A stretch of 64,000 bases of DNA from Deltaproteobacteria bacterium (GCA_040218735.1 JAVJQW010000027.1:1-64000); one strand, 5' to 3'; counted from the stretch's first letter, positions 17,794-27,991 are shown. Notes: generated by a model from the sequence alone, not told the origin. Program-made: numbers and translations.

Positions 17794-19077
17794 ATGTCGA
17801 TCCAGGGAAGCTACTTTTCCAACCCCTTCATGAACCCGTACCTCACGGGTGCATTCCCATCGGGCTCCAATCCGCTCGCGAGCAACCCGTTCGCCGCCCA
17901 GATGTTCGGCGGCAGCGCGCTCGACATGTTCTCGATGGGCAACACGTCCATCCCGGCGGCGCAGATGCTGCCGATGTTGATGGGCGCGATCATCCAGCAG
18001 CAGCTCGCGCTGATGTTCCTCGCCGAGCTCCTCGCGGGCGGCGGCGGACGTCGTCAGCAGGGCGGCGGTTGCAACCACTGCGGCGGGTTCCCGAACGGCA
18101 ACTTCAACTCGGGCCGTCGCCTCGGTCCGGGCGCCTGGAACAACAACGGCGTCACCGGCCCCGGCGCGGGCGTCATCCCCACGCCCGGCGCAGCCGCGCA
18201 CAACGGCACCGCGACGATCGACTCCGTGCGCAACTCGGGCGCGCGCAACCAAATGGTCTCCGGCCGCATCACGGTGAACGGCCGCACGTACCAGTACAAC
18301 AGCGGCGGTCACGGTCGCGGCAGCCTCCCGCCGGGCCAGTACCAGGTCACGCCGCACATGTTCAGTCGCAACACCCGAGGTATGGTGCGCGACGGCGTCG
18401 GTTACAGCTTCGCGCTGAACAACGCGTACGACCCGCGCGTCGGCGACACGCGCACCGCGCTCCGCATCCACCCGGACGGTGGCAGCGCCGGCACGATGGG
18501 CTGCATCGGCATCGTCGGTGACGCGGCGACGCAGCGTCAGTTCCGCGCGGACATGATGGCCGAGATCCAGCGCAACGGCGGCAGCTTCACGCTGAACGTC
18601 GGTGTCCCCGGCAACCAGGTCCCGAACTCGCCGACCAACGTCGCGAACAACGGCGTCACCGGCCCGACGAGCGCGTCGGCGGCGAACCTCAACCGTCACC
18701 TCGGCGGGGTCTTCAGCGGCCAGGGCCAGGCGTTCATCGACGCCGCGCGTCGCCACGGCATCGACCCGAACCTCCTCGCTGCGATCGCGATCCACGAGAC
18801 GGGGAACGGCACGTCGAACGCCGTGCGCAACCACAACAACCCCGGCGGCCTGATGAACCCGCGCACCAACTGGAGCACGCTGCAGCGCTTCGGCAGCCTC
18901 TCGCAGGGCATCGACGCGATGGCGCGCAACCTCAAGCGCGGCTACATCAGCCAGGGCCTGACGAGCATCTCAGCGATCGGTCGCAAGTACGCGCCCGTCG
19001 GCGCCGGCAACGACCCGCGCGGCCTCAACCGCCACTGGGTCCCGAACGTCACCGACATCCTGCGTCGGATCTCCTGA
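17794..19077 (+). CDS. Bifunctional peptidoglycan-acting protein: Tlde1/L,D-transpeptidase-like plus glucosaminidase/lysozyme-like domain
   Basis: ATG 17794 after GGAGG/AAGGA; LPPGQY...LRIHPDGGSAGTMGCIGI; AIAIHETGNG...NNPGGL...KYAP. Confidence 0.75.
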   Translation: MSIQGSYFSNPFMNPYLTGAFPSGSNPLASNPFAAQMFGGSALDMFSMGNTSIPAAQMLPMLMGAIIQQQLALMFLAELLAGGGGRRQQGGGCNHCGGFPNGNFNSGRRLGPGAWNNNGVTGPGAGVIPTPGAAAHNGTATIDSVRNSGARNQMVSGRITVNGRTYQYNSGGHGRGSLPPGQYQVTPHMFSRNTRGMVRDGVGYSFALNNAYDPRVGDTRTALRIHPDGGSAGTMGCIGIVGDAATQRQFRADMMAEIQRNGGSFTLNVGVPGNQVPNSPTNVANNGVTGPTSASAANLNRHLGGVFSGQGQAFIDAARRHGIDPNLLAAIAIHETGNGTSNAVRNHNNPGGLMNPRTNWSTLQRFGSLSQGIDAMARNLKRGYISQGLTSISAIGRKYAPVGAGNDPRGLNRHWVPNVTDILRRIS

Positions 19078-19350
19078 TCAAGTCCGAGCGTATCGCTGCG
19101 CCGCGCGGGCCTTTGCCTTCGCGGCTTCTTCCTCGCGGTTCTTCGGCGGCGCGTTCGTTTCGAGCGAATCCACGAGCTGGCGGGTCGCCAACGCGATCAT
19201 CTCCACCGCGCGATCGAACGCCTCTTCGTTGGCCTTGCTCGGCTTCCGCGAGCCGCTGATCTTCCGCACGTACTGGAGCGCCGCGTCGCGGACCTCCTCG
19301 TCCGTGGCGGGCGGCTCGAAGTTGAACAGCGGGCGAATGTTGCGGCACAT
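19078..19350 (-). CDS. DUF2277 family protein
   Basis: MCRNIRPLFNFEPPATDEEVRDAALQYVRKISG signature. Confidence 0.9.
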   Translation of the reverse strand: MCRNIRPLFNFEPPATDEEVRDAALQYVRKISGSRKPSKANEEAFDRAVEMIALATRQLVDSLETNAPPKNREEEAAKAKARAAQRYART

Positions 19351-19420
19351 GCGCGGAAGGTAACGCATTCGAGGCCTCCCTGTGGACGTCGCGGGGGCCT
19401 TCGTCGCAATCTCGTCGTCG

Positions 19421-20473
19421 GTGCGTCGGTTCGCCCTGCTCCTGCTCGCGCTCGTCGCCTGTCGCGACAACGCGCCGGCCTGCCCGGAGGGTGCGGCGTG
19501 CGCGACCGCGTGCGCTTCGGACGCGGAATGTGGCGCCGACGAGATCTGCAACCAGGCGATGCGCTGTCAGCGCCGCCCGCGCTGTCGCTCCAACGCGGAC
19601 TGCGAAGCGGCCGAGCAGTGTGATCCGACCAGCGGCTCGTGCGTCGCGCCGCAGGTCTGCTTCGCCGACCTGCACTGCGCCTTCGGCGAGCTGTGCGAGG
19701 ACGGTGCCTGTGTCCCGGGTTGCCGCTCGGACGGGGACTGCCCGCTGTACTCCGTCTGCGATGCCGGCGCGTGCACGAACGAATGCGGCTCGAATGCGTT
19801 TTGTGATCTCGGCTCGGTCTGCGCGGCCGGCACCTGCTACCCGTCGCCGAACCCGAGCCACTGCGCGCCCTGCGACGCCGATCGCCCGTGCCCCTACGCA
19901 TCGGACTACTGCCTGCTCAACCACAACTACGACGCCAACGAGCCGTCGCGCGGGACGGCGCGTTACTGCGCGGTGGACTGTCTCGGCGACGCCAACGTCT
20001 GCCCGAATGGCTACGCGTGTCAGCCGGTCACCCTCCTCACCGAGGACCCCTGCGAACGCGACATCCAGTGCCAGCGCGAAGATCGCCGGTGTCTGATCGA
20101 GGAAGGCGCGACCCGGGGCTTCTGCTCGTGCGGCAACGACTTCGACTGCCTCCCGGAGTCCCTCCCGCCGCGGTGCCGCCTCGGCTTCTGCGAATCACCG
20201 AGCGGTCAACTCTGCGGGAGCGACCGCGACTGCCGACCGCTCGTGCTCTGCGACAGACACGGCGGGAGCCCGGTCGACATCTGCGCCAACGACGGCTCGC
20301 GCTGCGACTCCGCGGAGGACTGCCTCTGCCACGAAGGTCGCTGCCTCAACACCGGACGCGTATGCGAGCAGGGCAGCGACTGCATCTTGCCGTGTGTCGA
20401 CGGCGTGTGTTTCGTCGGCGCCGCGTGCGCGCCCGTCGAGGGGTTGTACTGTCCCGAACTTCGCGAGATGTGA
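19421..20473 (+). CDS. Highly Cys-rich lipoprotein (CxxDxDC repeats)
   Basis: GTG 19421, lipobox LALVAC; many CxSDxxC repeats. Confidence 0.85.
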   Translation: MRRFALLLLALVACRDNAPACPEGAACATACASDAECGADEICNQAMRCQRRPRCRSNADCEAAEQCDPTSGSCVAPQVCFADLHCAFGELCEDGACVPGCRSDGDCPLYSVCDAGACTNECGSNAFCDLGSVCAAGTCYPSPNPSHCAPCDADRPCPYASDYCLLNHNYDANEPSRGTARYCAVDCLGDANVCPNGYACQPVTLLTEDPCERDIQCQREDRRCLIEEGATRGFCSCGNDFDCLPESLPPRCRLGFCESPSGQLCGSDRDCRPLVLCDRHGGSPVDICANDGSRCDSAEDCLCHEGRCLNTGRVCEQGSDCILPCVDGVCFVGAACAPVEGLYCPELREM

Positions 20474-20579
20474 TCGACACGTAGCCTCGGCGGCCACCTT
20501 GAACGCCGTCGCGCTTTGGTCGAGGCTCTGTACCGGGGGACAGGTGGCGCCCGGGGGGCTCGGTCGCGCTGAAACACAT

Positions 20580-21386
20580 TTGAGAACTCTTGTCGTTGCC
20601 AGCCAGAAGGGGGGCGTTGGAAAGACCACGCTCGCCCTCAACCTCAGCTACGCGTTCGCCGAGGCCGGCTTCAAAACGCTGCTCGTCGACACCGATCCGC
20701 AGGGTGCCGTCGGCCTGTCGCTCTCCCCGTCGGTCGCGCGACGGGCCGGCCTTGCGGACGTCATCGCGGGGGAGGTGGGCGTCGACGACGCCGTCCTGCA
20801 GACGAAACACGAGCGGCTCGCGCTGATGCCCGTCGGGCGCATCGCGCCGAAGGAAGTCGCGGCCTTCTCCCGCGCCATCGTCGACGGGCGTCGCCTCGAA
20901 CCCGTCCTCGACGGGCTGCACGACCGTTACGACGTCAAGATCATCGACACACCGTGCGGGTTCGGCGGGATTACGGTCGAGGCGCTACGCAACTCCACGC
21001 ACGTCGTCTCGCCGATCCTCGCGGAGCCGATCGTCATGCGCTCGGTCCCGCAGCTCTTCGAGATGGTGCAATCGCTCATCGAAGAGGGTGTGGCCACGTG
21101 CATCGTCGGACTCGTCGTGACGATGCTCCAGGCTCAGGAACAGTACTCGTCGAGCGTTGCTCGCGAGCTGCGAACGCTGTTCCCGCCCGAGCTGCTCTTC
21201 GACGTCGACATTCCGCGCCAACCGATCTTCCTCGAGGCGACGTCGCTCGGTGTACCCGTCGGGCTGCTCCGTACGCCCGCGCCACCCGTCACTCATCTCA
21301 TCAACCTCATCGCTGCGGAGATCGCGAATCGCATGCAGCTCTTCAGGAAAGACGACCATGTCCGGCACCGGACCCTCGTGGATTGA
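20580..21386 (+). CDS. ParA/MinD family ATPase (no adjacent parB)
   Basis: Deviant Walker A SQKGGVGKTT, VDTDPQG, IIDTP; start TTG 20580 or GTG 20544. Confidence 0.9.
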   Translation: MRTLVVASQKGGVGKTTLALNLSYAFAEAGFKTLLVDTDPQGAVGLSLSPSVARRAGLADVIAGEVGVDDAVLQTKHERLALMPVGRIAPKEVAAFSRAIVDGRRLEPVLDGLHDRYDVKIIDTPCGFGGITVEALRNSTHVVSPILAEPIVMRSVPQLFEMVQSLIEEGVATCIVGLVVTMLQAQEQYSSSVARELRTLFPPELLFDVDIPRQPIFLEATSLGVPVGLLRTPAPPVTHLINLIAAEIANRMQLFRKDDHVRHRTLVD

Positions 21387-21924
21387 AACGGATCGGCTGA
21401 GCGGCCTCGTCGCCCTCACCGCGTGGCGGCGTCCCGCGGCGTCCGGCACAACGTCACGCTTCGGTGTGACGGAGGTCCACGCACGCTTCGACGACGACGG
21501 GCAAAACCGAACCCTCGTTACGCCGATCCCGGAGCCTCCGCCCGTAGGGGCCGTTTCGATGGCGGGCCCCATCGAAACGCGGCTCGACGCCCTCATGGCA
21601 TGGAGCGTGTCGACGCTGAAGCTGTCGTCGGCCTACGTCGCCGATGACGAGGGACTGCTCCTCGCCTCGACCTCCGAGGTGGCGCTCCCGCCGGTCGTGA
21701 CCACGTGTATCGACACGTTGGTACGGCAGTGGACGCGGTACGCTGCGCGCCCCCGCGGCTGCCTGATCGTACGTGCTGACGGACTAGCCCACGCCGTCGC
21801 GTGGACGAACCTGGGCGAACGTACGTACTTCCTCGTCGTGAGTGGCGCACACCACGACGATTTCGCGCCGGTCGACCCTCTCGTCGAGGGGCTCGCGAGT
21901 GCGTTGGAGTCCAAAGACCGATGA
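21358..21924 (+). CDS. Protein with C-terminal roadblock/LC7-like domain
   Basis: ATG 21358 overlapping the ParA end; AYVADDEGLLLAST typical of roadblock beta1-beta2. Confidence 0.6.
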   Translation: MSGTGPSWIETDRLSGLVALTAWRRPAASGTTSRFGVTEVHARFDDDGQNRTLVTPIPEPPPVGAVSMAGPIETRLDALMAWSVSTLKLSSAYVADDEGLLLASTSEVALPPVVTTCIDTLVRQWTRYAARPRGCLIVRADGLAHAVAWTNLGERTYFLVVSGAHHDDFAPVDPLVEGLASALESKDR

Positions 21925-22499
21925 ATGACGAGCAACTCAGGATGACCGTCTCGACCATCCCGCGCCTGCGCGCGTGCGCTGTGGTCAGCACACGGGGCGG
22001 TGCGCTTCGCGCGACGTACCTGTCGCCTACGGAGAGTTGGGACGCGATCGACTTCGCGCAGGTGGTCGGGCGTCTGTTCGACGACGCGTCGGGCGCGCTC
22101 GGGCTCATCGGTGCCGGCGGCGCCGAGCAGCTGCTCCTCGAGGCCCGCGGGCGTCGCGTCGCGCTCCAGGCGCTCGACGCAAACCACGTCGCGGCGTTTG
22201 TGTTCGACCGCGAAGCGAAGCTCGGGATGATCCGCCATCGCCTCGACGATCTCCGCGCCGCGCTCACGGAGAACCTGGGCGATCACAACGGCACCGCTCA
22301 ACGCGGCGCGACGATCCTCGAGTACCTCGAGCGCAACGCCGCCGACACCCACGCGGCGCTGCTGAGAGTGTCACTCCAAACCGGCTTGCCAATGAGCCTC
22401 CTGAGAACGCCCGACAGCCTCTCCGAAGCCGAGCTCGAGAGCGTCGCCGCCTCCGTACGTCAGATCCTCGGCGTGCAGACTCTGGGAATCGAGTCATGA
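21921..22499 (+). CDS. Roadblock/LC7 (MglB-like) domain plus C-terminal helical domain
   Basis: ATGA overlap; IPRLRACAVVSTRGG...EQLLLEARG...AKLGMIR pattern. Confidence 0.65.
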   Translation: MNDEQLRMTVSTIPRLRACAVVSTRGGALRATYLSPTESWDAIDFAQVVGRLFDDASGALGLIGAGGAEQLLLEARGRRVALQALDANHVAAFVFDREAKLGMIRHRLDDLRAALTENLGDHNGTAQRGATILEYLERNAADTHAALLRVSLQTGLPMSLLRTPDSLSEAELESVAASVRQILGVQTLGIES

Positions 22500-23758
22500 C
22501 CAACATCGCCCACCTCTTCGAGAGCCGCTCCACGATGGAGTCGCACCAGATGGACTTCCTCGCGGAGACGCAGGTCGTCTTTCACTGCCACCACTTCAAC
22601 CTGTTCTTCGACCAGACGATCGACGACGCGCTCGGACCGGAGCGCGGCACCGAGCTGCGCGTCGAAGCCGGGCACAAGTCGGCGTACCACCTGCTGCGCG
22701 GGCTCTTCCGCAGCGGTCGCTACCGCACACCGATCGAACGGCTCGACGCCGCGACGACGCTCCTGCGCGCGATGGGCCACGGCCGCGTCGACTCCATGAC
22801 GAATCGCTCCGGAGGCACCGCGACCGGTGACTACCTGCACTACGGGTTCGGGTGGCAAGAGAAGTACGGCGACGCCGTCAAGCGGAACCACTGCGCGGAT
22901 GCCTTCGCCGCCGGCTTTCTCTCCGCTGCGAACGAGCTCGCGTACGACCTCGACCTCGGGTCCCTCGCGACGCGCGAGTCGCGCTGCATCGCGACGGGGG
23001 AGCGTCAGTGTCACTTCGAGGTCGAGCCGCGTCGGCAGCGACTGCTCACCAGCAACGTGCACCCGTCCACCGCGGAGGCGACGTTGCCGGCGTCGTTCGA
23101 AGGTGAGTTCGAAGATCGGATCGAGGCGATCACCAAAGGGCTGCGTGAGTTTCTCTCCGGGGTCCAAGGCGACGAGCGTGGGGTGATCGACGCCTTCGGC
23201 GTGCTCGTCACGATGCACCTCGCCGACTACTACAACCACCTCGCGAACGACACGCTGCGCGTTGTCGCCACCGAGAAGCCCCACGCACAAGACGCGTTCC
23301 GTTCCTTGCTCGTGGAGTCCGGGCAGGTCTGCTCCTTCCACACGTTCGGGGGGGTGCTCGCGTCGCCGGAGTGGGACGGTATGGTCGGGGCTCCGTCCGG
23401 TGAACCGTCGGAGGTCGTCGTCGGGGGCCTCGCACTCGCGCGCGCGTTGGGGTTCGGACGGTGGAGCCTCGAGGATTGGATCCCCGAGAAACAGCTCGTC
23501 CTCGGGAGCCCGGGTACTTATGAGAGTCTGTTCTCGCGTCTCGCGCCGATGTCACCGCATCGCGCGCCGAGCGGGATCTTTCCGGGCGCGGCGCTCGGGA
23601 TCATGTCCCTCGCGCACCGCGTCGACTGGGCGAACAAACAACCCCTCGATGCGGCCCTCTACCGGCAGCTCGTTTCGAACAACCCGTGGAAGGTCGAGCA
23701 GACGCATTCGATCGTCGCGGGTGACGACCGGGACCGCGTGGTGGTGAGTCTGAAGTGA
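22496..23758 (+). CDS. Tandem V4R (4-vinyl reductase-like) domain protein
   Basis: ATGA overlap; FHCHHFN, MGHG, AGFLSA, ESRCIATGERQCHFEV; second degenerate copy LGFGRW...VEQTHSIVAGDDRDRVVV. Confidence 0.75.
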   Translation: MTNIAHLFESRSTMESHQMDFLAETQVVFHCHHFNLFFDQTIDDALGPERGTELRVEAGHKSAYHLLRGLFRSGRYRTPIERLDAATTLLRAMGHGRVDSMTNRSGGTATGDYLHYGFGWQEKYGDAVKRNHCADAFAAGFLSAANELAYDLDLGSLATRESRCIATGERQCHFEVEPRRQRLLTSNVHPSTAEATLPASFEGEFEDRIEAITKGLREFLSGVQGDERGVIDAFGVLVTMHLADYYNHLANDTLRVVATEKPHAQDAFRSLLVESGQVCSFHTFGGVLASPEWDGMVGAPSGEPSEVVVGGLALARALGFGRWSLEDWIPEKQLVLGSPGTYESLFSRLAPMSPHRAPSGIFPGAALGIMSLAHRVDWANKQPLDAALYRQLVSNNPWKVEQTHSIVAGDDRDRVVVSLK

Positions 23759-24081
23759 CTTCGCTCGTCGCCACGCCACCGACGCCCGACCGCGGGTGTC
23801 GGAATCAGATCCTCTGGGAGTGCGGGTTGTCGCCGACGCTCCACGCGGAGGACTTCGTCGCGCGAGTGCTCGCCGCGGGGGCCCGCGACGTCGGACCGCC
23901 GGGCATCCCGTCGCTGCGGATGTTCGAAGCTCCCGAAGGCGGGCATCGGCTCGTGTTCGTCCCGAGGACGTCGCGGCTTCAGCTCCGGCTCGACGCGATG
24001 ACGCCGCAAGGGACCCGCGTCGATGCGGCGCGTGCGCTGCACGCGTGGCTCGTCGAAGTGCTGACGCGAGGTGAAGCGTGA
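23755..24081 (+). CDS. Hypothetical protein within the ParA-roadblock-V4R operon
   Basis: GTGA overlaps on both sides. Confidence 0.65.
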   Translation: MTSLVATPPTPDRGCRNQILWECGLSPTLHAEDFVARVLAAGARDVGPPGIPSLRMFEAPEGGHRLVFVPRTSRLQLRLDAMTPQGTRVDAARALHAWLVEVLTRGEA

Positions 24082-25163
24082 ACCGAGTCCTGATCGTCGA
24101 TGGCGACGTCGACACCCTCCGCCGCGCGCGCGCCGGGTTGTTGGTGCACGGCTTCTCGGTGCTGACCGCGACGAACCGCGAGGAGGCGTTGGAGCTGCTC
24201 TCGGCGAGCCCGGTCTCCGTGATGGTCGTGGAGCACGCGTTGGAAGGGCGGACCGGGCACAAACTGATCGAAGAGGTGCGGCGCCGGTGGTCGTCGACGG
24301 CGTGTGTGCTCGCGGTGACGAACGAGGACGGTCGTCGCGTGGCGCGCGAGGTGGGCGCGTCGCGCGTCGTGGCGAAGCCGTACGACAACGACCGCCTGGT
24401 CAACGTGCTGGCGTCGCTGCGCGGCGGCGCCGGATTCACCGGCACGGGCCTGACGGGGTTCAACCTCACGGACCTGTTGCAGCTGGTGTCGATGTCCGGG
24501 CAGGCGATGACCTTGCGCGTGAACCGGGGTGACGAAGACGGGGAGATGTGTGTCTCGAACGGTCGCCTCGTGCACGCGCGTGCGGGTGACATGTCCGGCG
24601 TGGACGCGGGGCTCGAGATGTTGTCGTGGACCGACGGTGAGGTCGCGTCGTCGCCCGAGGTTTTGCCGGAGCCGCAGTGGACGTCGGACCTCCCGGTGAT
24701 GGAGCTGCTGATGAACGCGGCGCGCCACCGGGACGAGCAGGTGGCTGGGCAACAACGCAAGCGAACGCAGGCCGCGCTGCGTGGGTTGGTGGCGTTGGAC
24801 GGGGTGCTCGCGAGCGTCGTGTACGCGCGGCCGTCGTTCGACGAGCTGGTCGTCGCGACCTCGGAGGGGGCGCCCGAGCGCGACGCGGACCGTCGTTGGA
24901 TCGTCCTCGCGTTGGACGCGCTGAAAGAGGCCGATTCGTTCACTTCGATGCACTGGGACGGACCGCGGCACGGCATCACCGTCGTACCGATCCGAACGAA
25001 CGGCGTCCTGGTGGTGTGGACGCAGGCGGGGGGCCGCCACGATCCCTACCGCTCGGTGCTCGACGATCTCCGCGTTCACCTCGAGGAGACGCTCGGTGAG
25101 ATCGGCGAATCGTCTCAGGGCGCGGGTGGGCAGGTCTTGCGCGTCGTCCCCGAATCCGACTGA
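24078..25163 (+). CDS. Pseudo-receiver plus DUF4388 (PATAN-like) domain protein
   Basis: RVLIVDGD...VAKPY REC fold with Glu at the phosphoacceptor position; GFNLTDLLQL...GRLVHA...MELLMNAARHRDE. Confidence 0.85.
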   Translation: MNRVLIVDGDVDTLRRARAGLLVHGFSVLTATNREEALELLSASPVSVMVVEHALEGRTGHKLIEEVRRRWSSTACVLAVTNEDGRRVAREVGASRVVAKPYDNDRLVNVLASLRGGAGFTGTGLTGFNLTDLLQLVSMSGQAMTLRVNRGDEDGEMCVSNGRLVHARAGDMSGVDAGLEMLSWTDGEVASSPEVLPEPQWTSDLPVMELLMNAARHRDEQVAGQQRKRTQAALRGLVALDGVLASVVYARPSFDELVVATSEGAPERDADRRWIVLALDALKEADSFTSMHWDGPRHGITVVPIRTNGVLVVWTQAGGRHDPYRSVLDDLRVHLEETLGEIGESSQGAGGQVLRVVPESD

Positions 25164-25206
25164 GGCCTCGACCTCGACGCGGGGAGCGGCTTAGTCTCCG
25201 CGCGCC

Positions 25207-26124
25207 ATGATGGTCTCGAACGAAGGCTCCATTTGGGGCCTGCTCGCCTGGCAGTGGAAGAACACGCTGATCTTCACGGTCGCGTCGACGATCGCGTTCG
25301 TGATCTACGAGGTGCTCGGCTACACGTGGTTCAAGCTCCCCGCGCTCCCGCTCGGCGTGGTGGGTGGCGCCATCGGCATCTTCGTGAGCTTCAGGACGAA
25401 CTCGGCGTACGACCGCTGGTGGGAGGGCCGAAAGCTGTGGGGGCGCATGATCAACACGTCCCGGCACTGGGGCCTGCAGGTCATGGCGTACCTTCCGAAG
25501 GCGGAGGGGGGCGCGGTCAGTGAGACGCAGCAGCGGCTGATTCGTCGGCACATCGCGTACGTCCACACGCTGCGCTGTGCGCTGCGCGGGCAGAAGCCGT
25601 TCGACGACGAGGACTTCAAGCAGGCGCTCCCCGATGACGCCGAAGCACTCCAGTCCGAGAGCAACCTCAACACGGCGCTGCTCGGCCGCCAGCTCGCGGA
25701 CGTCAAGGCGCTCGCGCAGGAGGCGAAGATCGATTCGTTCGAGCTGTCGAACCTGGACCTGTCGATCCGACACCTCCTCGACATTCAGGGCGGGTGCGAG
25801 CGCATCAAGAAGACGCCGATGCCGCGCGGCTACGCCTTCATCGCGGAGCGCCTCGTGCGTTACTTCTCGTTCCTCTTCCCGCTCGCGCTCGTCGCCGACC
25901 TCCACGCGTGGGTCATCCCGATCAACTTGCTCGTCTGCATGGCGTTTGCGTTGATCAGCGAGGCGGGGCGCGTGTTGGAAGATCCGTTCACGCTCTTCTG
26001 GAACGGCCTGCCGCTGATGGCGATCAGCCGCATGATCGAGGTGAACCTCGAGGAGCGCATGGAGACGCCACGCGACCAGCTGAAGCCCATGCTCGCGCCG
26101 AACGAGAAGGGCATCCTCATGTAG
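25207..26124 (+). CDS. Bestrophin family ion channel
   Basis: FRTNSAYDRWWEGRKLWG, GGCERIKKTPMP, LEDPF. Confidence 0.95.
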   Translation: MMVSNEGSIWGLLAWQWKNTLIFTVASTIAFVIYEVLGYTWFKLPALPLGVVGGAIGIFVSFRTNSAYDRWWEGRKLWGRMINTSRHWGLQVMAYLPKAEGGAVSETQQRLIRRHIAYVHTLRCALRGQKPFDDEDFKQALPDDAEALQSESNLNTALLGRQLADVKALAQEAKIDSFELSNLDLSIRHLLDIQGGCERIKKTPMPRGYAFIAERLVRYFSFLFPLALVADLHAWVIPINLLVCMAFALISEAGRVLEDPFTLFWNGLPLMAISRMIEVNLEERMETPRDQLKPMLAPNEKGILM

Positions 26125-27991
26125 CGCGCGGGCGGGTCGTGCCCCAGACCAACACCTGGATCGCGACCACCGCCACGAGTGTCAGCGCGACCGCGTGGGA
26201 GATGTAACGCGGCCACACCGCACCGGCGCAGGCGCCCGCGAGCGCCGCGGCGGACGAGAGCAACGTGCGACGATCCATCGTGACGGCGAGGATGCCGAGG
26301 CCGGTGGCGAGGAGGAGGAGGTCCTGGACGAGGACCTTCTCGATCGGGACGTCCATCACGATCGACAGCCACAGGTGAATCGGCGCGACGATGCCGAGGG
26401 TGAGGATCGAGAACCCGATCTTCTTCGCCGCCTGATTTGCGAACAGCGTGCGCCGGAAGAGCGCGCCGACGATCACGACGACGGACAACAACCCGAGGCG
26501 GCCGCTCATCCAGGCCCGCTCGCCGCCGAGGTCGAGCCACTCCAGGAGGTATAGGCCGCTTACGGCGATGCCGCAGGTGATGCCGAGCGCGGTGTACGCG
26601 CGGGCGCGTCCGCCGGCGGCGACGTCGAGGTCGGCCTCGAGATCTTGGAGCTGACGGAAGCGCTCCTCCTGTTGCGCCTCTTCCGCCTTCAGCGCGTCGA
26701 GGCGCGCGGGGAGGTCGCCGCGATCCTCCTGGGCGAGCTCCGCGATCAAGAGCTCGGCGCCCTCGGCGTTGTCGCGTTGGAGCTCGTGCGCGGCCATCAG
26801 CGCGATCGCCGCGGCGAGCCCGGCGTTCGCGTCGGGGAGGTCGGGCGTGACGCGGAGCGCTTCTTCGTACGCGAAGCGGCACTCGCCAAAGATGCGGTAC
26901 TGCGCGACGCGATCGTCGACGAGGGTCTCGAGGCGACGGTGTTTGTCGCGGGCCTGCCGGACGAGGTCGACGGAGGAGCGCGTCTGGAGGAAGTCGAGGA
27001 GCGCGACGCGGAGCTGTTCGGGATCTTCGTAGCGATCGTTCGGTTTCGGTGCGAGCGCGCGGCGCGCGATGTCGACGAGCGCGTCGGGCGTGCCTTCGGG
27101 GTACGTGTACTCGGTCGCGAAGCTCTGCAGCAGAACGGCGATGAGGTCGCCGCCGCGGTGCGGGGGAGCGCCGGTGAGCATGTGATGGAGCAGGCCGCCG
27201 AGGAGGTACACGTCGGTGCGTGGTCCGACGTAACCCGCGGTCGCGTCGATCATCTCCGGTGCGAGGTACGCGGGTGTCCCGACGAGCGCCATGGGGCGCC
27301 CGGCTTCGCGGTCGTCGCGGAGGTCGTCGATGCGCACCGCGATGCCCCAGTCCAGGAGGTAGACCTCGCCGAAGTCACCGACCATGACGTTCTCGGGTTT
27401 GATGTCGCGGTGGAGGTAGCCGTGCCGGTGCGCGAAGTGCACCGCGTTGGCGACCTGCATGAGCACTTGCAGGCACCAGTCGAGGCGCGCGCCGCGGACC
27501 ATCGCCCAGCGCGCGTGGTCGGGGTCGTCGAGCATCGACGACAGCGGGGTGCCGTCGATGCGTTTCATCATCAGCAGCGGCCGGCCGTCGACGTCGCGGC
27601 CGAGGAGGTGCACCGGCGGGATGTTCGGGTGTTCCAGCGCGCCGATGATGCGGGCTTCGCGGAGGAGGCCGGCGCGTGCGCCGGGGGAGTGGAGCTCGTG
27701 CAGGCGTTTGACGGCGACTTCGCGACCGAGCGCGACTTGCCACGCGCTGCGGACGACGCCCATGCCGCCGCGCCCTAGCTCCCGTCCGAGGATCAGCTCG
27801 GTGGTCCTGAGGTCCGCGTCGCGTTCGCCGACGCGGACCGCGGTGAGCGGCTCGTCCTCCGGGAACATCGGCGTCGGTGCGGGACGGATGGAGAGGAGCG
27901 GGTCGGCGGACTGGTGGGTGTCGAGGAGGCCGACGTCGTCGAGGGCGGTGCGGATCGTCTCCTCGTAGGACACCGCCACCAAGGCTATCAC
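26117..27991 (-). CDS. Ser/Thr protein kinase with C-terminal multi-TM region
   Basis: LGRGGMGVV, VAVK, HRDIKPEN, LLDWGIA, GTPAYLAPE; GTG 27991 overlaps the upstream stop. Confidence 0.9.
   Translation of the reverse strand: MIALVAVSYEETIRTALDDVGLLDTHQSADPLLSIRPAPTPMFPEDEPLTAVRVGERDADLRTTELILGRELGRGGMGVVRSAWQVALGREVAVKRLHELHSPGARAGLLREARIIGALEHPNIPPVHLLGRDVDGRPLLMMKRIDGTPLSSMLDDPDHARWAMVRGARLDWCLQVLMQVANAVHFAHRHGYLHRDIKPENVMVGDFGEVYLLDWGIAVRIDDLRDDREAGRPMALVGTPAYLAPEMIDATAGYVGPRTDVYLLGGLLHHMLTGAPPHRGGDLIAVLLQSFATEYTYPEGTPDALVDIARRALAPKPNDRYEDPEQLRVALLDFLQTRSSVDLVRQARDKHRRLETLVDDRVAQYRIFGECRFAYEEALRVTPDLPDANAGLAAAIALMAAHELQRDNAEGAELLIAELAQEDRGDLPARLDALKAEEAQQEERFRQLQDLEADLDVAAGGRARAYTALGITCGIAVSGLYLLEWLDLGGERAWMSGRLGLLSVVVIVGALFRRTLFANQAAKKIGFSILTLGIVAPIHLWLSIVMDVPIEKVLVQDLLLLATGLGILAVTMDRRTLLSSAAALAGACAGAVWPRYISHAVALTLVAVVAIQVLVWGTTRPRAT

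Follow-up and report, generated by a model that had tools for sequence, protein, structure and literature searches.

Orphan ParA/MinD ATPases are known to act with partner proteins in positioning systems such as PomXYZ, McdAB, ParC/ParP and MinDE, and MglB-type roadblock proteins are known beside a different NTPase, the MglA-like GTPase of the MglA/MglB systems of Myxococcus and Thermus (with MglC and RomR/RomX) and of the Streptomyces conservons (CvnA kinase, CvnB roadblock, CvnC DUF742, CvnD GTPase). MglB homologues are also encoded near PATAN proteins and, in the accessible part of a 2014 survey, 328 of 749 MglB homologues were uncoupled to MglA, none of them studied at that time (PMC4316618). 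Furthermore, a two-sentence remark in the accessible text of an October 2026 preprint has a PriB1-clade ParA displacing MglA in MglB-centered systems of Myxococcus-related bacteria (bioRxiv 10.64898/2026.10.19.760177). Here, we analyze six genes at positions 20580–25163 of a 64,000-nucleotide stretch of DNA from a Deltaproteobacteria bacterium (GCA_040218735.1, JAVJQW010000027.1:1–64000; this whole stretch is called the window throughout), which encode a ParA, two roadblock proteins (RbA and RbB), a tandem V4R protein (V4R2), a small protein, and a REC-PATAN protein. The operon is real, conserved and uncharacterized, and is best described as a roadblock-regulated NTPase switch, with a mechanism that we infer, in which ParA is the NTPase and to which a V4R/Bet3-like sensor is attached. 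An earlier reading of the window's sequence (hereafter the sequence-only reading) had proposed the locus as an undescribed system, which may hold for the operon as a whole, but not for the replacement of MglA by ParA beside MglB, already in print as the passing remark just cited.

Six overlapping genes and their products

Our own gene caller, based on third-position GC (GC3) and run blind to the sequence-only reading, places six co-oriented genes on the + strand at 20580–25163, in a region of 66–70% G+C. The high-GC3 frame shifts at every junction between the six genes, which overlap by 29, 4, 4, 4 and 4 nucleotides (nt), the 4-nt junctions being in order ATGA, ATGA, GTGA and GTGA, and both the calls and the junction sequences reproduce the layout that the sequence-only reading had described. 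The six genes are translationally coupled, and the arrangement is far beyond chance, because the same order recurs in dozens of species. The features of the locus, with the evidence for each in brackets and lengths in amino acids (aa), are as follows.

20580–21386, +: g1, ParA/Soj-type deviant Walker A ATPase, 268 aa, TTG start (Pfam, PDB profile)
21358–21924, +: g2 (RbA), 188 aa, N-terminal helix, Pro-rich linker and C-terminal roadblock (AlphaFold 2 (AF2) and Foldseek)
21358–21420, +: RbA N-terminal conserved peptide (column counts, 38 sequences)
21571–21906, +: RbA roadblock/MglB-like domain, aa 72–183 (AF2 topology, Foldseek)
21921–22499, +: g3 (RbB), 192 aa, N-terminal MglB-like roadblock and C-terminal helical domain of ~65 aa (profile against PDB)
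22293–22496, +: RbB C-terminal domain, aa 125–192 (conserved block)
22496–23758, +: g4 (V4R2), 420 aa, two fused V4R (Bet3/TRAPPC3-like) domains (AF2, Foldseek)
22496–23035, +: V4R domain 1, with His/Cys cluster (conservation, 72 sequences)
23093–23755, +: V4R domain 2, C-x7-C motif lost (half-against-half alignment)
23755–24081, +: g5 (sm), 108 aa, system-specific small protein (32-sequence alignment)
24078–25163, +: g6, REC (pseudo-receiver), PATAN/DUF4388 and C-terminal domain of ~135 aa (Pfam)
24078–24422, +: g6 REC domain, Glu51 at the phospho-acceptor position (14-protein alignment)
24450–24740, +: g6 PATAN (DUF4388) domain (Pfam PF14332, 1.4e-16)
24759–25160, +: g6 C-terminal domain, possibly a third roadblock-like domain (a lead only)

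Judged by its sequence, g1 is an intact ParA/MinD ATPase (SIMIBI class, deviant Walker A) with all catalytic motifs. The TTG start at 20580 gives MRTLVVASQKGGVGKT, in agreement with orthologue N-termini. Pfam returns AAA_31 (E-value 6.3e-28), CbiA (2.7e-16) and ParA (2.5e-11), and among solved structures the nearest are 8ray, a member of the ParA family (2e-20), and 1wcv, Soj of T. thermophilus (1.9e-19). The deviant Walker A, A′ and Walker B motifs are all present (SQKGGVGKTT, DTDPQG and D123), and K10, G11, G12, G14, T16, T17, D37, D39 and D123 are invariant in 29 orthologues, with K15 nearly so (at least 90%). No ParB family match was obtained among the six proteins, the two adjacent genes (encoding a Cys-rich lipoprotein and a bestrophin) and ten further flanking proteins, which bears out the sequence-only reading of a ParA present without parB, and the NCBIfam model ParA_partition reaches 77.7 bits against a cutoff of 180, which leaves the protein outside ParABS. 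We note that the C-termini of this system's ParAs share a conserved acidic tail (...D-x-P-I-x-L-x-D, closing for example in -LFA or -LVD; 21300–21383 in the window, and loci L037–L067), and that a TPR gene lies just upstream of ParA in 27 of the 88 loci described below. TPR domains often bind C-terminal peptides, and docking of the TPR protein on the ParA tail is, by analogy, possible; the window lacks a TPR gene, and only the final LVD of its otherwise degenerate ParA tail is kept.

RbA and RbB are two different MglB-like roadblock proteins, in keeping with the two roadblock folds originally proposed, and both window sequences fall below detection by Pfam Robl_LC7. For RbB, the fold comes from profile comparison: its profile matches M. 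xanthus MglB at 2.7e-6 (10 sequences) and 3.2e-6 (64 sequences), and the conservon roadblock CvnB5 at 1.7e-4 (64 sequences), with Robl_LC7 matching 5 of the 64 RbB relatives. For RbA, it comes from the predicted structure. The RbA sequence alone has no Pfam and no PDB match, and a word search found only 5 close homologues, with an iterative hidden Markov model (HMM) search extending the family to 44 members. The AF2 model, built on 38 relatives, has a mean predicted local distance difference test (pLDDT) score of 75.7, and residues 72–183 (pLDDT 71–95 in 10-residue blocks) adopt the topology a-b-b-a-b-b-b-a. Its best Foldseek matches are the MglB structures 3t1r and 6hjm from Thermus and Myxococcus (E 8.9e-5, template modeling (TM) score on the target 0.56–0.68), among 30 matches at E ≤ 0.001 that include other roadblock/LC7 proteins.

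Each roadblock protein carries an additional element. In RbA, the conserved first ~20 residues, with the motif M-x-x-S-[LR]-[SF]-[WL]-[IP]-[DE]-x3-L-x2-L-L (column counts, 38 sequences) and a predicted helix at residues 11–21, are followed by the Pro-rich linker, which evolves fast. In RbB, the C-terminal domain contains the conserved block RPRAxRLxxxLxRYAPDPHAxLLRxSLxTG...SVxDILG. It has no significant PDB match (best E 0.016, to an uncharacterized protein) and only weak Pfam matches (LPD22 in 17 of 68 members, best E 0.0018; HicB in 6 of 68). Kinship with a stand-alone 70-aa protein, c37, was considered and set aside as weak (hhalign 24%).

The AF2 model of V4R2 (pLDDT 94.8, predicted TM score 0.93) finds PoxR as its best structural match (5fru, 5.5e-5, TM score on the target 0.73), with MopR, also a V4R sensor domain, among the best, followed by MJ1460 (2.3e-3), TRAPPC3 (6.7e-3) and H-NOX (2.9e-2), the TRAPPC3/Bet3 matches spanning 6.7e-3 to 2.3e-2. 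Pfam V4R matches 40 of 72 family members (best 1.8e-11), and the window protein only at E 0.022, below the cutoff. V4R2 is a tandem V4R protein, as the sequence-only reading had it, because its two halves align with each other (probability 95.6%, E 1.1e-8). A fused form of at least 736 aa was found in none of 8000 scored candidates, which is weak evidence. In the cultured relative Haliangium ochraceum, the homologue (48% identity) is annotated ‘4-vinyl reductase 4VR’. A His/Cys cluster in domain 1 is nearly invariant across 72 sequences (H30 in 71, C31 in 70, H32 in 70, H33 in 70, C164 in 72, C172 in 64), the last two residues forming a C164-x7-C172 motif; at the corresponding positions of domain 2, Cys occurs in only 20 and 29 of the 72 sequences, and the window has S and D. 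By analogy with the zinc sites of PoxR and Thor-TRAPPC3 in the accessible text of PMC10933270, the cluster may bind metal, and V4R2, a built-in pseudo-dimer carrying such a cluster, is likely a ligand or metal sensor.

Some distant relatives have two separate V4R genes (L025:1347–3893, L026:7845–9872, L101 and L105), which recall the paired V4R genes of bilin-associated clusters in the accessible text of PMC10151467; in L025 and L026 they are adjoined by a gene for a class-V aminotransferase (cysteine-desulfurase-like), the Pfam scan having covered the one in L025.

The small protein g5 evolves fast, with W21, T72, R74, R78, R88 and A92 invariant in 32 sequences. At E ≤ 0.001, a search of 1.84 billion proteins gives its family 285 representatives, of which the best 150, those listed, are 83–164 aa long, and in the Atlas it falls in unnamed Myxococcota clusters. 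It has no Pfam or PDB match (best PDB E 0.047), with only scattered single Pfam hits in relatives, and a proposed kinship with c10, a 98-aa cyanobacterial protein, proved weak (13%, E 0.002).

In g6, Pfam finds Response_reg (4.2e-13, aa 4–111) and DUF4388 (PF14332, 1.4e-16, aa 125–221, over the cutoff), and Glu51 (VMVVEHAL) replaces the phospho-acceptor Asp, so that the proposed pseudo-REC-PATAN architecture stands. In the 14-protein alignment, the acceptor position is E in the window, A in the sister genome (L027), and G or A in Nannocystales-type proteins, with the canonical Asp kept in Haliangium-type loci and in L068 (L033, L035, L047, L068). The C-terminal domain of g6 has no PDB or Pfam match. 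As a third roadblock it was not established (hhalign probability of 7–9% against RbB and RbA), the one lead being an Atlas score of 0.86 to a cluster with Robl_LC7 in 15% of its members.

Conservation, modularity and the missing GTPase

A one-genome-per-species scan yielded 80 loci, mostly from Myxococcota (Nannocystales, Haliangium, Polyangiaceae and Kofleriaceae), with a few from Acidobacteriota and a block from thermophilic cyanobacteria. Together with seven loci from relatives and the window, this makes 88 loci, in which six-frame HMM hits were placed by aligned coordinates. RbB lies directly upstream of V4R2 in 72 of these (a stand-alone 70-aa protein takes its place in 5), and 68 of them have a small protein downstream (48 sm, 14 c10 and 6 c57). 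Among loci with room for the gene, RbA is present in 52 of 81 and ParA in 44 of 78, always with both RbA and RbB (44/44). The order ParA-RbA-RbB-V4R2 is found in 44/88 loci and extends to the small protein, completing the five-gene core, in 37/88, so the gene order is conserved; the complete set of six genes occurs in only 13/88. In the nearest nonsister orthologues, the order is ExbB-ExbD-ParA-RbA-RbB-V4R2-sm-REC.PATAN-DivIC-GAF.GAF.GGDEF.

The system is modular, with two sub-modules that share RbB, and the idea of one indivisible six-gene unit has to be given up, as the sub-modules occur separately. In other myxobacteria, 5 further loci (L111–L113, L118 and L119) have ParA-RbA-RbB but no V4R2. 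The converse triad, RbB-V4R2-c10 without ParA or RbA, is cyanobacterial (L080–L095, L104 and L106, in Thermosynechococcus, Thermostichus, Gloeomargarita and hot-spring Synechococcus), with unrelated flanks (TGT, a branched-chain permease, an anti-sigma-type kinase). A more distant layout without V4R2, HK-roadblock-x-PATAN-ParA-RbA, occurs in three loci from two other families of the phylum (L114:7402–12199, L116:4015–8619 and L117:1059–5643), with genes for a histidine kinase (HK), a 121–123-aa roadblock, a 251-aa protein, a PATAN-like protein, ParA and an RbA-like protein; here, the labels of the 251-aa and PATAN-like proteins come from local HMM/BLAST likeness only.

In a ParA tree of 47 rows, from which system ParAs outside 245–290 aa were left out, a branch with 100/99 support sets the ParAs of all three locus types apart from 6/7 of the genome's other ParA-like proteins included in it, the seventh having a very long branch and an unsure position. 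On this tree, the system has a dedicated ParA lineage, within which four V4R2-less loci (L112 was left out) nest at two places among V4R2-bearing lineages.

The genome also has a second, paralogous copy on contig C41 (297451–301202; L013:9416–15102, − strand), with the order Rieske oxygenase, HAD hydrolase, ParA (45% identity), RbA-like, RbB (357 aa, with a long Pro-rich linker) and V4R2 (35% identity), and with a WbsX-type glycosyltransferase where the small protein would be. Other genomes repeat the order Rieske-HAD-ParA-RbA-RbB, some with V4R2 and some without it.

The sequence-only reading had found neither an MglA-type GTPase nor a histidine kinase at the locus. A tblastn search with the genome's own MglA gave no hit at E ≤ 1 in the 64-kb window and 94 loci, and none at E ≤ 0.01 in 9 further loci (103 related loci in all, within about 9 kb), and the GTPase is not simply displaced nearby, because neither the window nor the related loci contain a hit. 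A P-loop/NKxD motif scan of 1309 called proteins returned one small-GTPase candidate (L057_13). Elsewhere, the genome has a canonical mglB-mglA pair (contig C28), an MglC-like gene (C21) and two more MglA paralogues (C52 and C29); Pfam Ras (PF00071) missed its MglA, which was located beside a Pfam Robl_LC7 hit. The absence of a kinase likewise stands for this locus, but not for relatives that retain the canonical REC Asp: in Haliangium-type loci, a HisKA/HATPase kinase directly follows REC-PATAN. A hybrid kinase precedes ParA in L074, and a kinase follows V4R2 in L018. The window's lineage has lost both the REC Asp and the kinase. In L045 (10336–11901), V4R2 and the small protein are parted by two inserted genes, one of them coding for a REC-Hpt phosphotransfer protein, which again points to two-component coupling.

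Around the window locus, a gap of 106 nt separates the cluster from an upstream gene for a Cys-rich lipoprotein (19382–20473, +; probable start GTG 19421, signal peptide ending LVAC), which has weak myxobacterial Cys-repeat and DUF7107 matches and is kept there only in the sister genome, other lineages having TPR or ExbB-ExbD instead. Further upstream, at 17794–19077 (+), lies a gene for a Gly/Pro/Met-rich protein of ~427 aa, 78% identical to the same-place gene of the sister genome; our caller missed this gene (~17794–19077), proposing three short minus-strand open reading frames there. A gap of 43 nt follows the cluster, and then a seventh co-oriented gene, a bestrophin (25207–26124, +; Pfam 7.8e-63), kept at this place only in the sister genome, the 3′ end of which overlaps by 8 nt that of a convergent Ser/Thr protein kinase gene (26117–27991, −). 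A promoter and terminator scan of 19000–26500 detected no promoter-like site, and nothing at either border of the operon.

A possible ParA-based switch and its alternatives

Taking these observations together, we propose, with slightly more doubt than trust, that the operon encodes a conserved, mainly myxobacterial ParA-based switch or positioning module, regulated by the roadblock pair and tuned by V4R, in which ParA takes the place of an MglA-type GTPase. RbA and RbB would pair via their roadblock domains, like MglB, LAMTOR and the TRAPP longin/roadblock proteins. The N-terminal helix of RbA, on its flexible Pro-rich tether, would contact the ATP-bound ParA dimer and control its ATPase cycle or localization, like the partner peptides of other ParA/MinD systems. 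A sub-complex of the RbB C-terminal domain, V4R2 and the small protein would sense a ligand or metal and, in response, bias the roadblock platform, with RbB as the bridge, its roadblock domain facing the ParA side and its C-terminal domain, always abutting V4R2, the other. Output would pass via REC-PATAN to a polar or envelope target, for which type IV pili are the best precedent. In the window's lineage, there would be no phosphorylation input; in Haliangium-type relatives, input would come from the adjacent histidine kinase. PATAN is an accessory, and kinases feed the system in some lineages.

That ParA fills the nucleotide-switch role of MglA is suggested by its dedicated lineage, its strict co-occurrence with RbA, and the absence of a GTPase. 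Furthermore, a helix on a flexible tether before a dimerizing domain is the anatomy of known ParA/MinD partner proteins. Co-folding of two ParA chains, two ATP and RbA gave a score of 0.43, against 0.01 for the best of 3 controls, with runs agreeing in at least 36% of contacts and a partner pLDDT of at least 58. Of 80 solved complexes, 58 reach the pass mark used, as do 2 of 110 mismatched pairs; only 7 of the solved complexes, but both of these mismatches, pass at 0.60 or under. The multimer check suggested by the sequence-only reading thus passes for ParA with RbA, in a class of pass that lends weak support. The roles which that reading gave to the parts (sensing for V4R, activation of the ATPase for the roadblocks, localization of the complex for PATAN) are likewise proposals.

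Several observations weigh against this proposal. A co-fold pass of this weak class is wrong more often than right, unless the guess had been likely beforehand. The RbA motif lacks a consistently basic residue (Arg occupies position 3 in 13 of 38 sequences), and basic residues in partner peptides stimulate other ParA ATPases. Compared by hhalign, the profiles of RbA and RbB fail to recognize each other (probability 0.4%), so the case for their pairing is one of fold, and neither PDB nor Pfam offers a fold match for the small protein, the RbB C-terminal domain or the g6 C-terminal domain. REC-PATAN, although present here and counted by the sequence-only reading as part of the system, is absent from most loci (downstream in 16/88) and lies outside the conserved core. 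In 20 loci with room for ParA and RbA, among which are all of the cyanobacterial ones, RbB-V4R2-small stands without either of them, and in a phylum sample of 401 genomes, V4R2 is found in 37 and RbA in 25, with both in only 14, the RbA-only genomes having ParA-RbA-RbB without V4R2. Finally, the counts are approximate, since a single V4R2 peptide pattern was used to seed the loci and the genes come from our own caller.

The modularity bears on a doubtful alternative: that two separate modules sharing RbB are often adjacent, of which ParA-RbA-RbB serves positioning, and RbB-V4R2-small does not regulate ParA but handles a metal or a hydrophobic cofactor, such as a tetrapyrrole- or bilin-like ligand, by binding or processing it. 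Each half does occur alone, as the cyanobacterial triad and the five V4R2-less myxobacterial loci illustrate, and the nesting of V4R2-less loci on the ParA tree makes V4R2 look dispensable and lost on two occasions. The almost invariant His/Cys cluster would also suit this account, as would the V4R protein pairs that accompany bilin-biosynthesis clusters in delta-proteobacteria and cyanobacteria, according to the accessible text of PMC10151467. However, where both halves are present (44/78 loci with room), they form one translationally coupled string, the shared RbB combines a roadblock domain with a C-terminal domain adjoining V4R2, as a physical bridge would, and no cofactor-synthesis enzyme is conserved beside the core.

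It is also conceivable, albeit unlikely, that a bacterial platform resembling TRAPP/Ragulator is built here from the two roadblock proteins, the small protein and the fused V4R/Bet3-like pseudo-dimer, and that it determines the nucleotide state of a SIMIBI ATPase, ParA, in place of that of a Ras-like GTPase. Were this so, the roadblock-V4R partnership would be ancient, would serve different NTPase classes and would predate eukaryotic TRAPP, and a large class of ‘orphan’ MglB homologues would gain its first known function.

We consider it rather improbable that RbA and RbB act in trans, as GTPase-activating protein/guanine nucleotide exchange factor-type regulators or MglC-like adaptors of a distant MglA, with ParA only placing them. 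The genome does provide three MglA-family GTPases (on C28, C52 and C29) but only one canonical MglB and one MglC-like protein, both roadblock domains are closest to MglB among solved structures, and orphan MglB homologues are common in the survey counts quoted at the outset; set against this, no MglA lies within about 9 kb in the 103 related loci or in the 64-kb window, and the only NTPase that covaries with RbA is ParA (RbA is present in 44/44 ParA-bearing loci). That ParA and V4R are here the basis of an anti-phage or conflict system is highly improbable, since, even if ParA-wHTH proteins with V4R fusions and ParA-V4R fusions are candidate immune systems in the accessible text of bioRxiv 10.64898/2026.10.19.760177, and the RbA linker and small protein evolve fast, PADLOC 2.0 matches ParA only locally, at the P-loop (E 2.7e-4 and 1.8e-3), and leaves the other five proteins unmatched at E ≤ 0.01, the core has no effector domain (nuclease, TIR, HEPN or pore), the neighbors are housekeeping or signaling genes (TPR, ExbBD, DivIC, GGDEF, histidine kinases), and the same text files its ParA-for-MglA case under housekeeping switches.

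To return to the ParA switch under roadblock control, the locus makes ParA a concrete candidate partner for one class of GTPase-less MglB homologues. If the proposal is true, the two great classes of P-loop switches are both under the control of roadblock platforms, ParA gains a new kind of partner, and there is a possible small-molecule input to myxobacterial polarity or motility.

Comparison with known systems

The preprint's remark on ParA in place of MglA (Fig. 2B, panel 16, of bioRxiv 10.64898/2026.10.19.760177) probably concerns the same or a related neighborhood, the window ParA having the DxDPQ glutamine given for PriB1. The tandem V4R, small protein, RbA peptide and modular split are not described in the accessible text, in which ‘PATAN’ and ‘roadblock’ have 0 occurrences. 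More broadly, in the accessible parts of the literature on V4R and MglB (bioRxiv 10.64898/2026.10.19.760177, PMC10933270 and PMC3791482), the operon is not described, and Podar et al. (2008), on V4R and Bet3, mention no roadblock, MglB, operon or GTPase.

Among known systems, MglA/MglB comes closest, although the GTPase that defines it is missing here. The MglA/MglB systems share with this locus their MglB-like roadblocks, which are the best match for RbA and RbB, their occurrence in myxobacteria, and a PATAN link, known for MglB neighborhoods from the accessible part of PMC4316618. They differ in their NTPase, as no MglA is present here and the only NTPase is a SIMIBI-class ParA, and in having neither two different roadblock proteins with an extra N-terminal peptide and C-terminal domain nor any counterpart of V4R2 and the small protein; moreover, the genome keeps a separate canonical mglBA. 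The Streptomyces conservons likewise combine a roadblock with an NTPase, and relatives of our locus add a kinase, the HK-roadblock-x-PATAN-ParA-RbA form in particular having a conservon-like layout with ParA as the NTPase. The NTPase is, however, ParA rather than an MglA-like GTPase, V4R and PATAN stand in place of DUF742, for which no protein scanned gave a match, and conservon membership therefore falls away, with only the roadblock component present in the window.

As in the orphan ParA/MinD systems, an intact ParA without ParB is followed by a gene whose product has an N-terminal peptide on a disordered linker; the difference is that this partner is a roadblock protein, and that no cargo is evident. 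The PATAN-REC regulators (PatA, PixG/PixE) share the REC and DUF4388 domains of g6, which differs in its order (REC-PATAN-extra domain) and, in the window's lineage, in the absent acceptor Asp. In the accessible text of bioRxiv 10.1101/2021.06.11.447907, PATAN regulators bind the type IV pilus motor in Synechocystis, and by this analogy PATAN is likely the output of the system.

The last comparison is with the eukaryotic/Asgard TRAPP core and Ragulator, whose two folds have neighboring genes at this locus, as two roadblocks and a V4R/Bet3-like pseudo-dimer. The kinship of V4R with TRAPPC3 and its zinc site are documented in the accessible text of PMC10933270, where the GTPase genes of one Asgard archaeon lie generally outside operons with roadblock or TRAPPC3 genes. 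The likeness is one of parts only, drawn from folds and gene adjacency at a locus with no GTPase, and the bacterial V4R domains of the PoxR/MopR type are closer to V4R2 than TRAPPC3 is. If our proposal for the operon is true, the pairing of roadblock and V4R/Bet3 folds found in eukaryotic TRAPP already exists as a bacterial operon.

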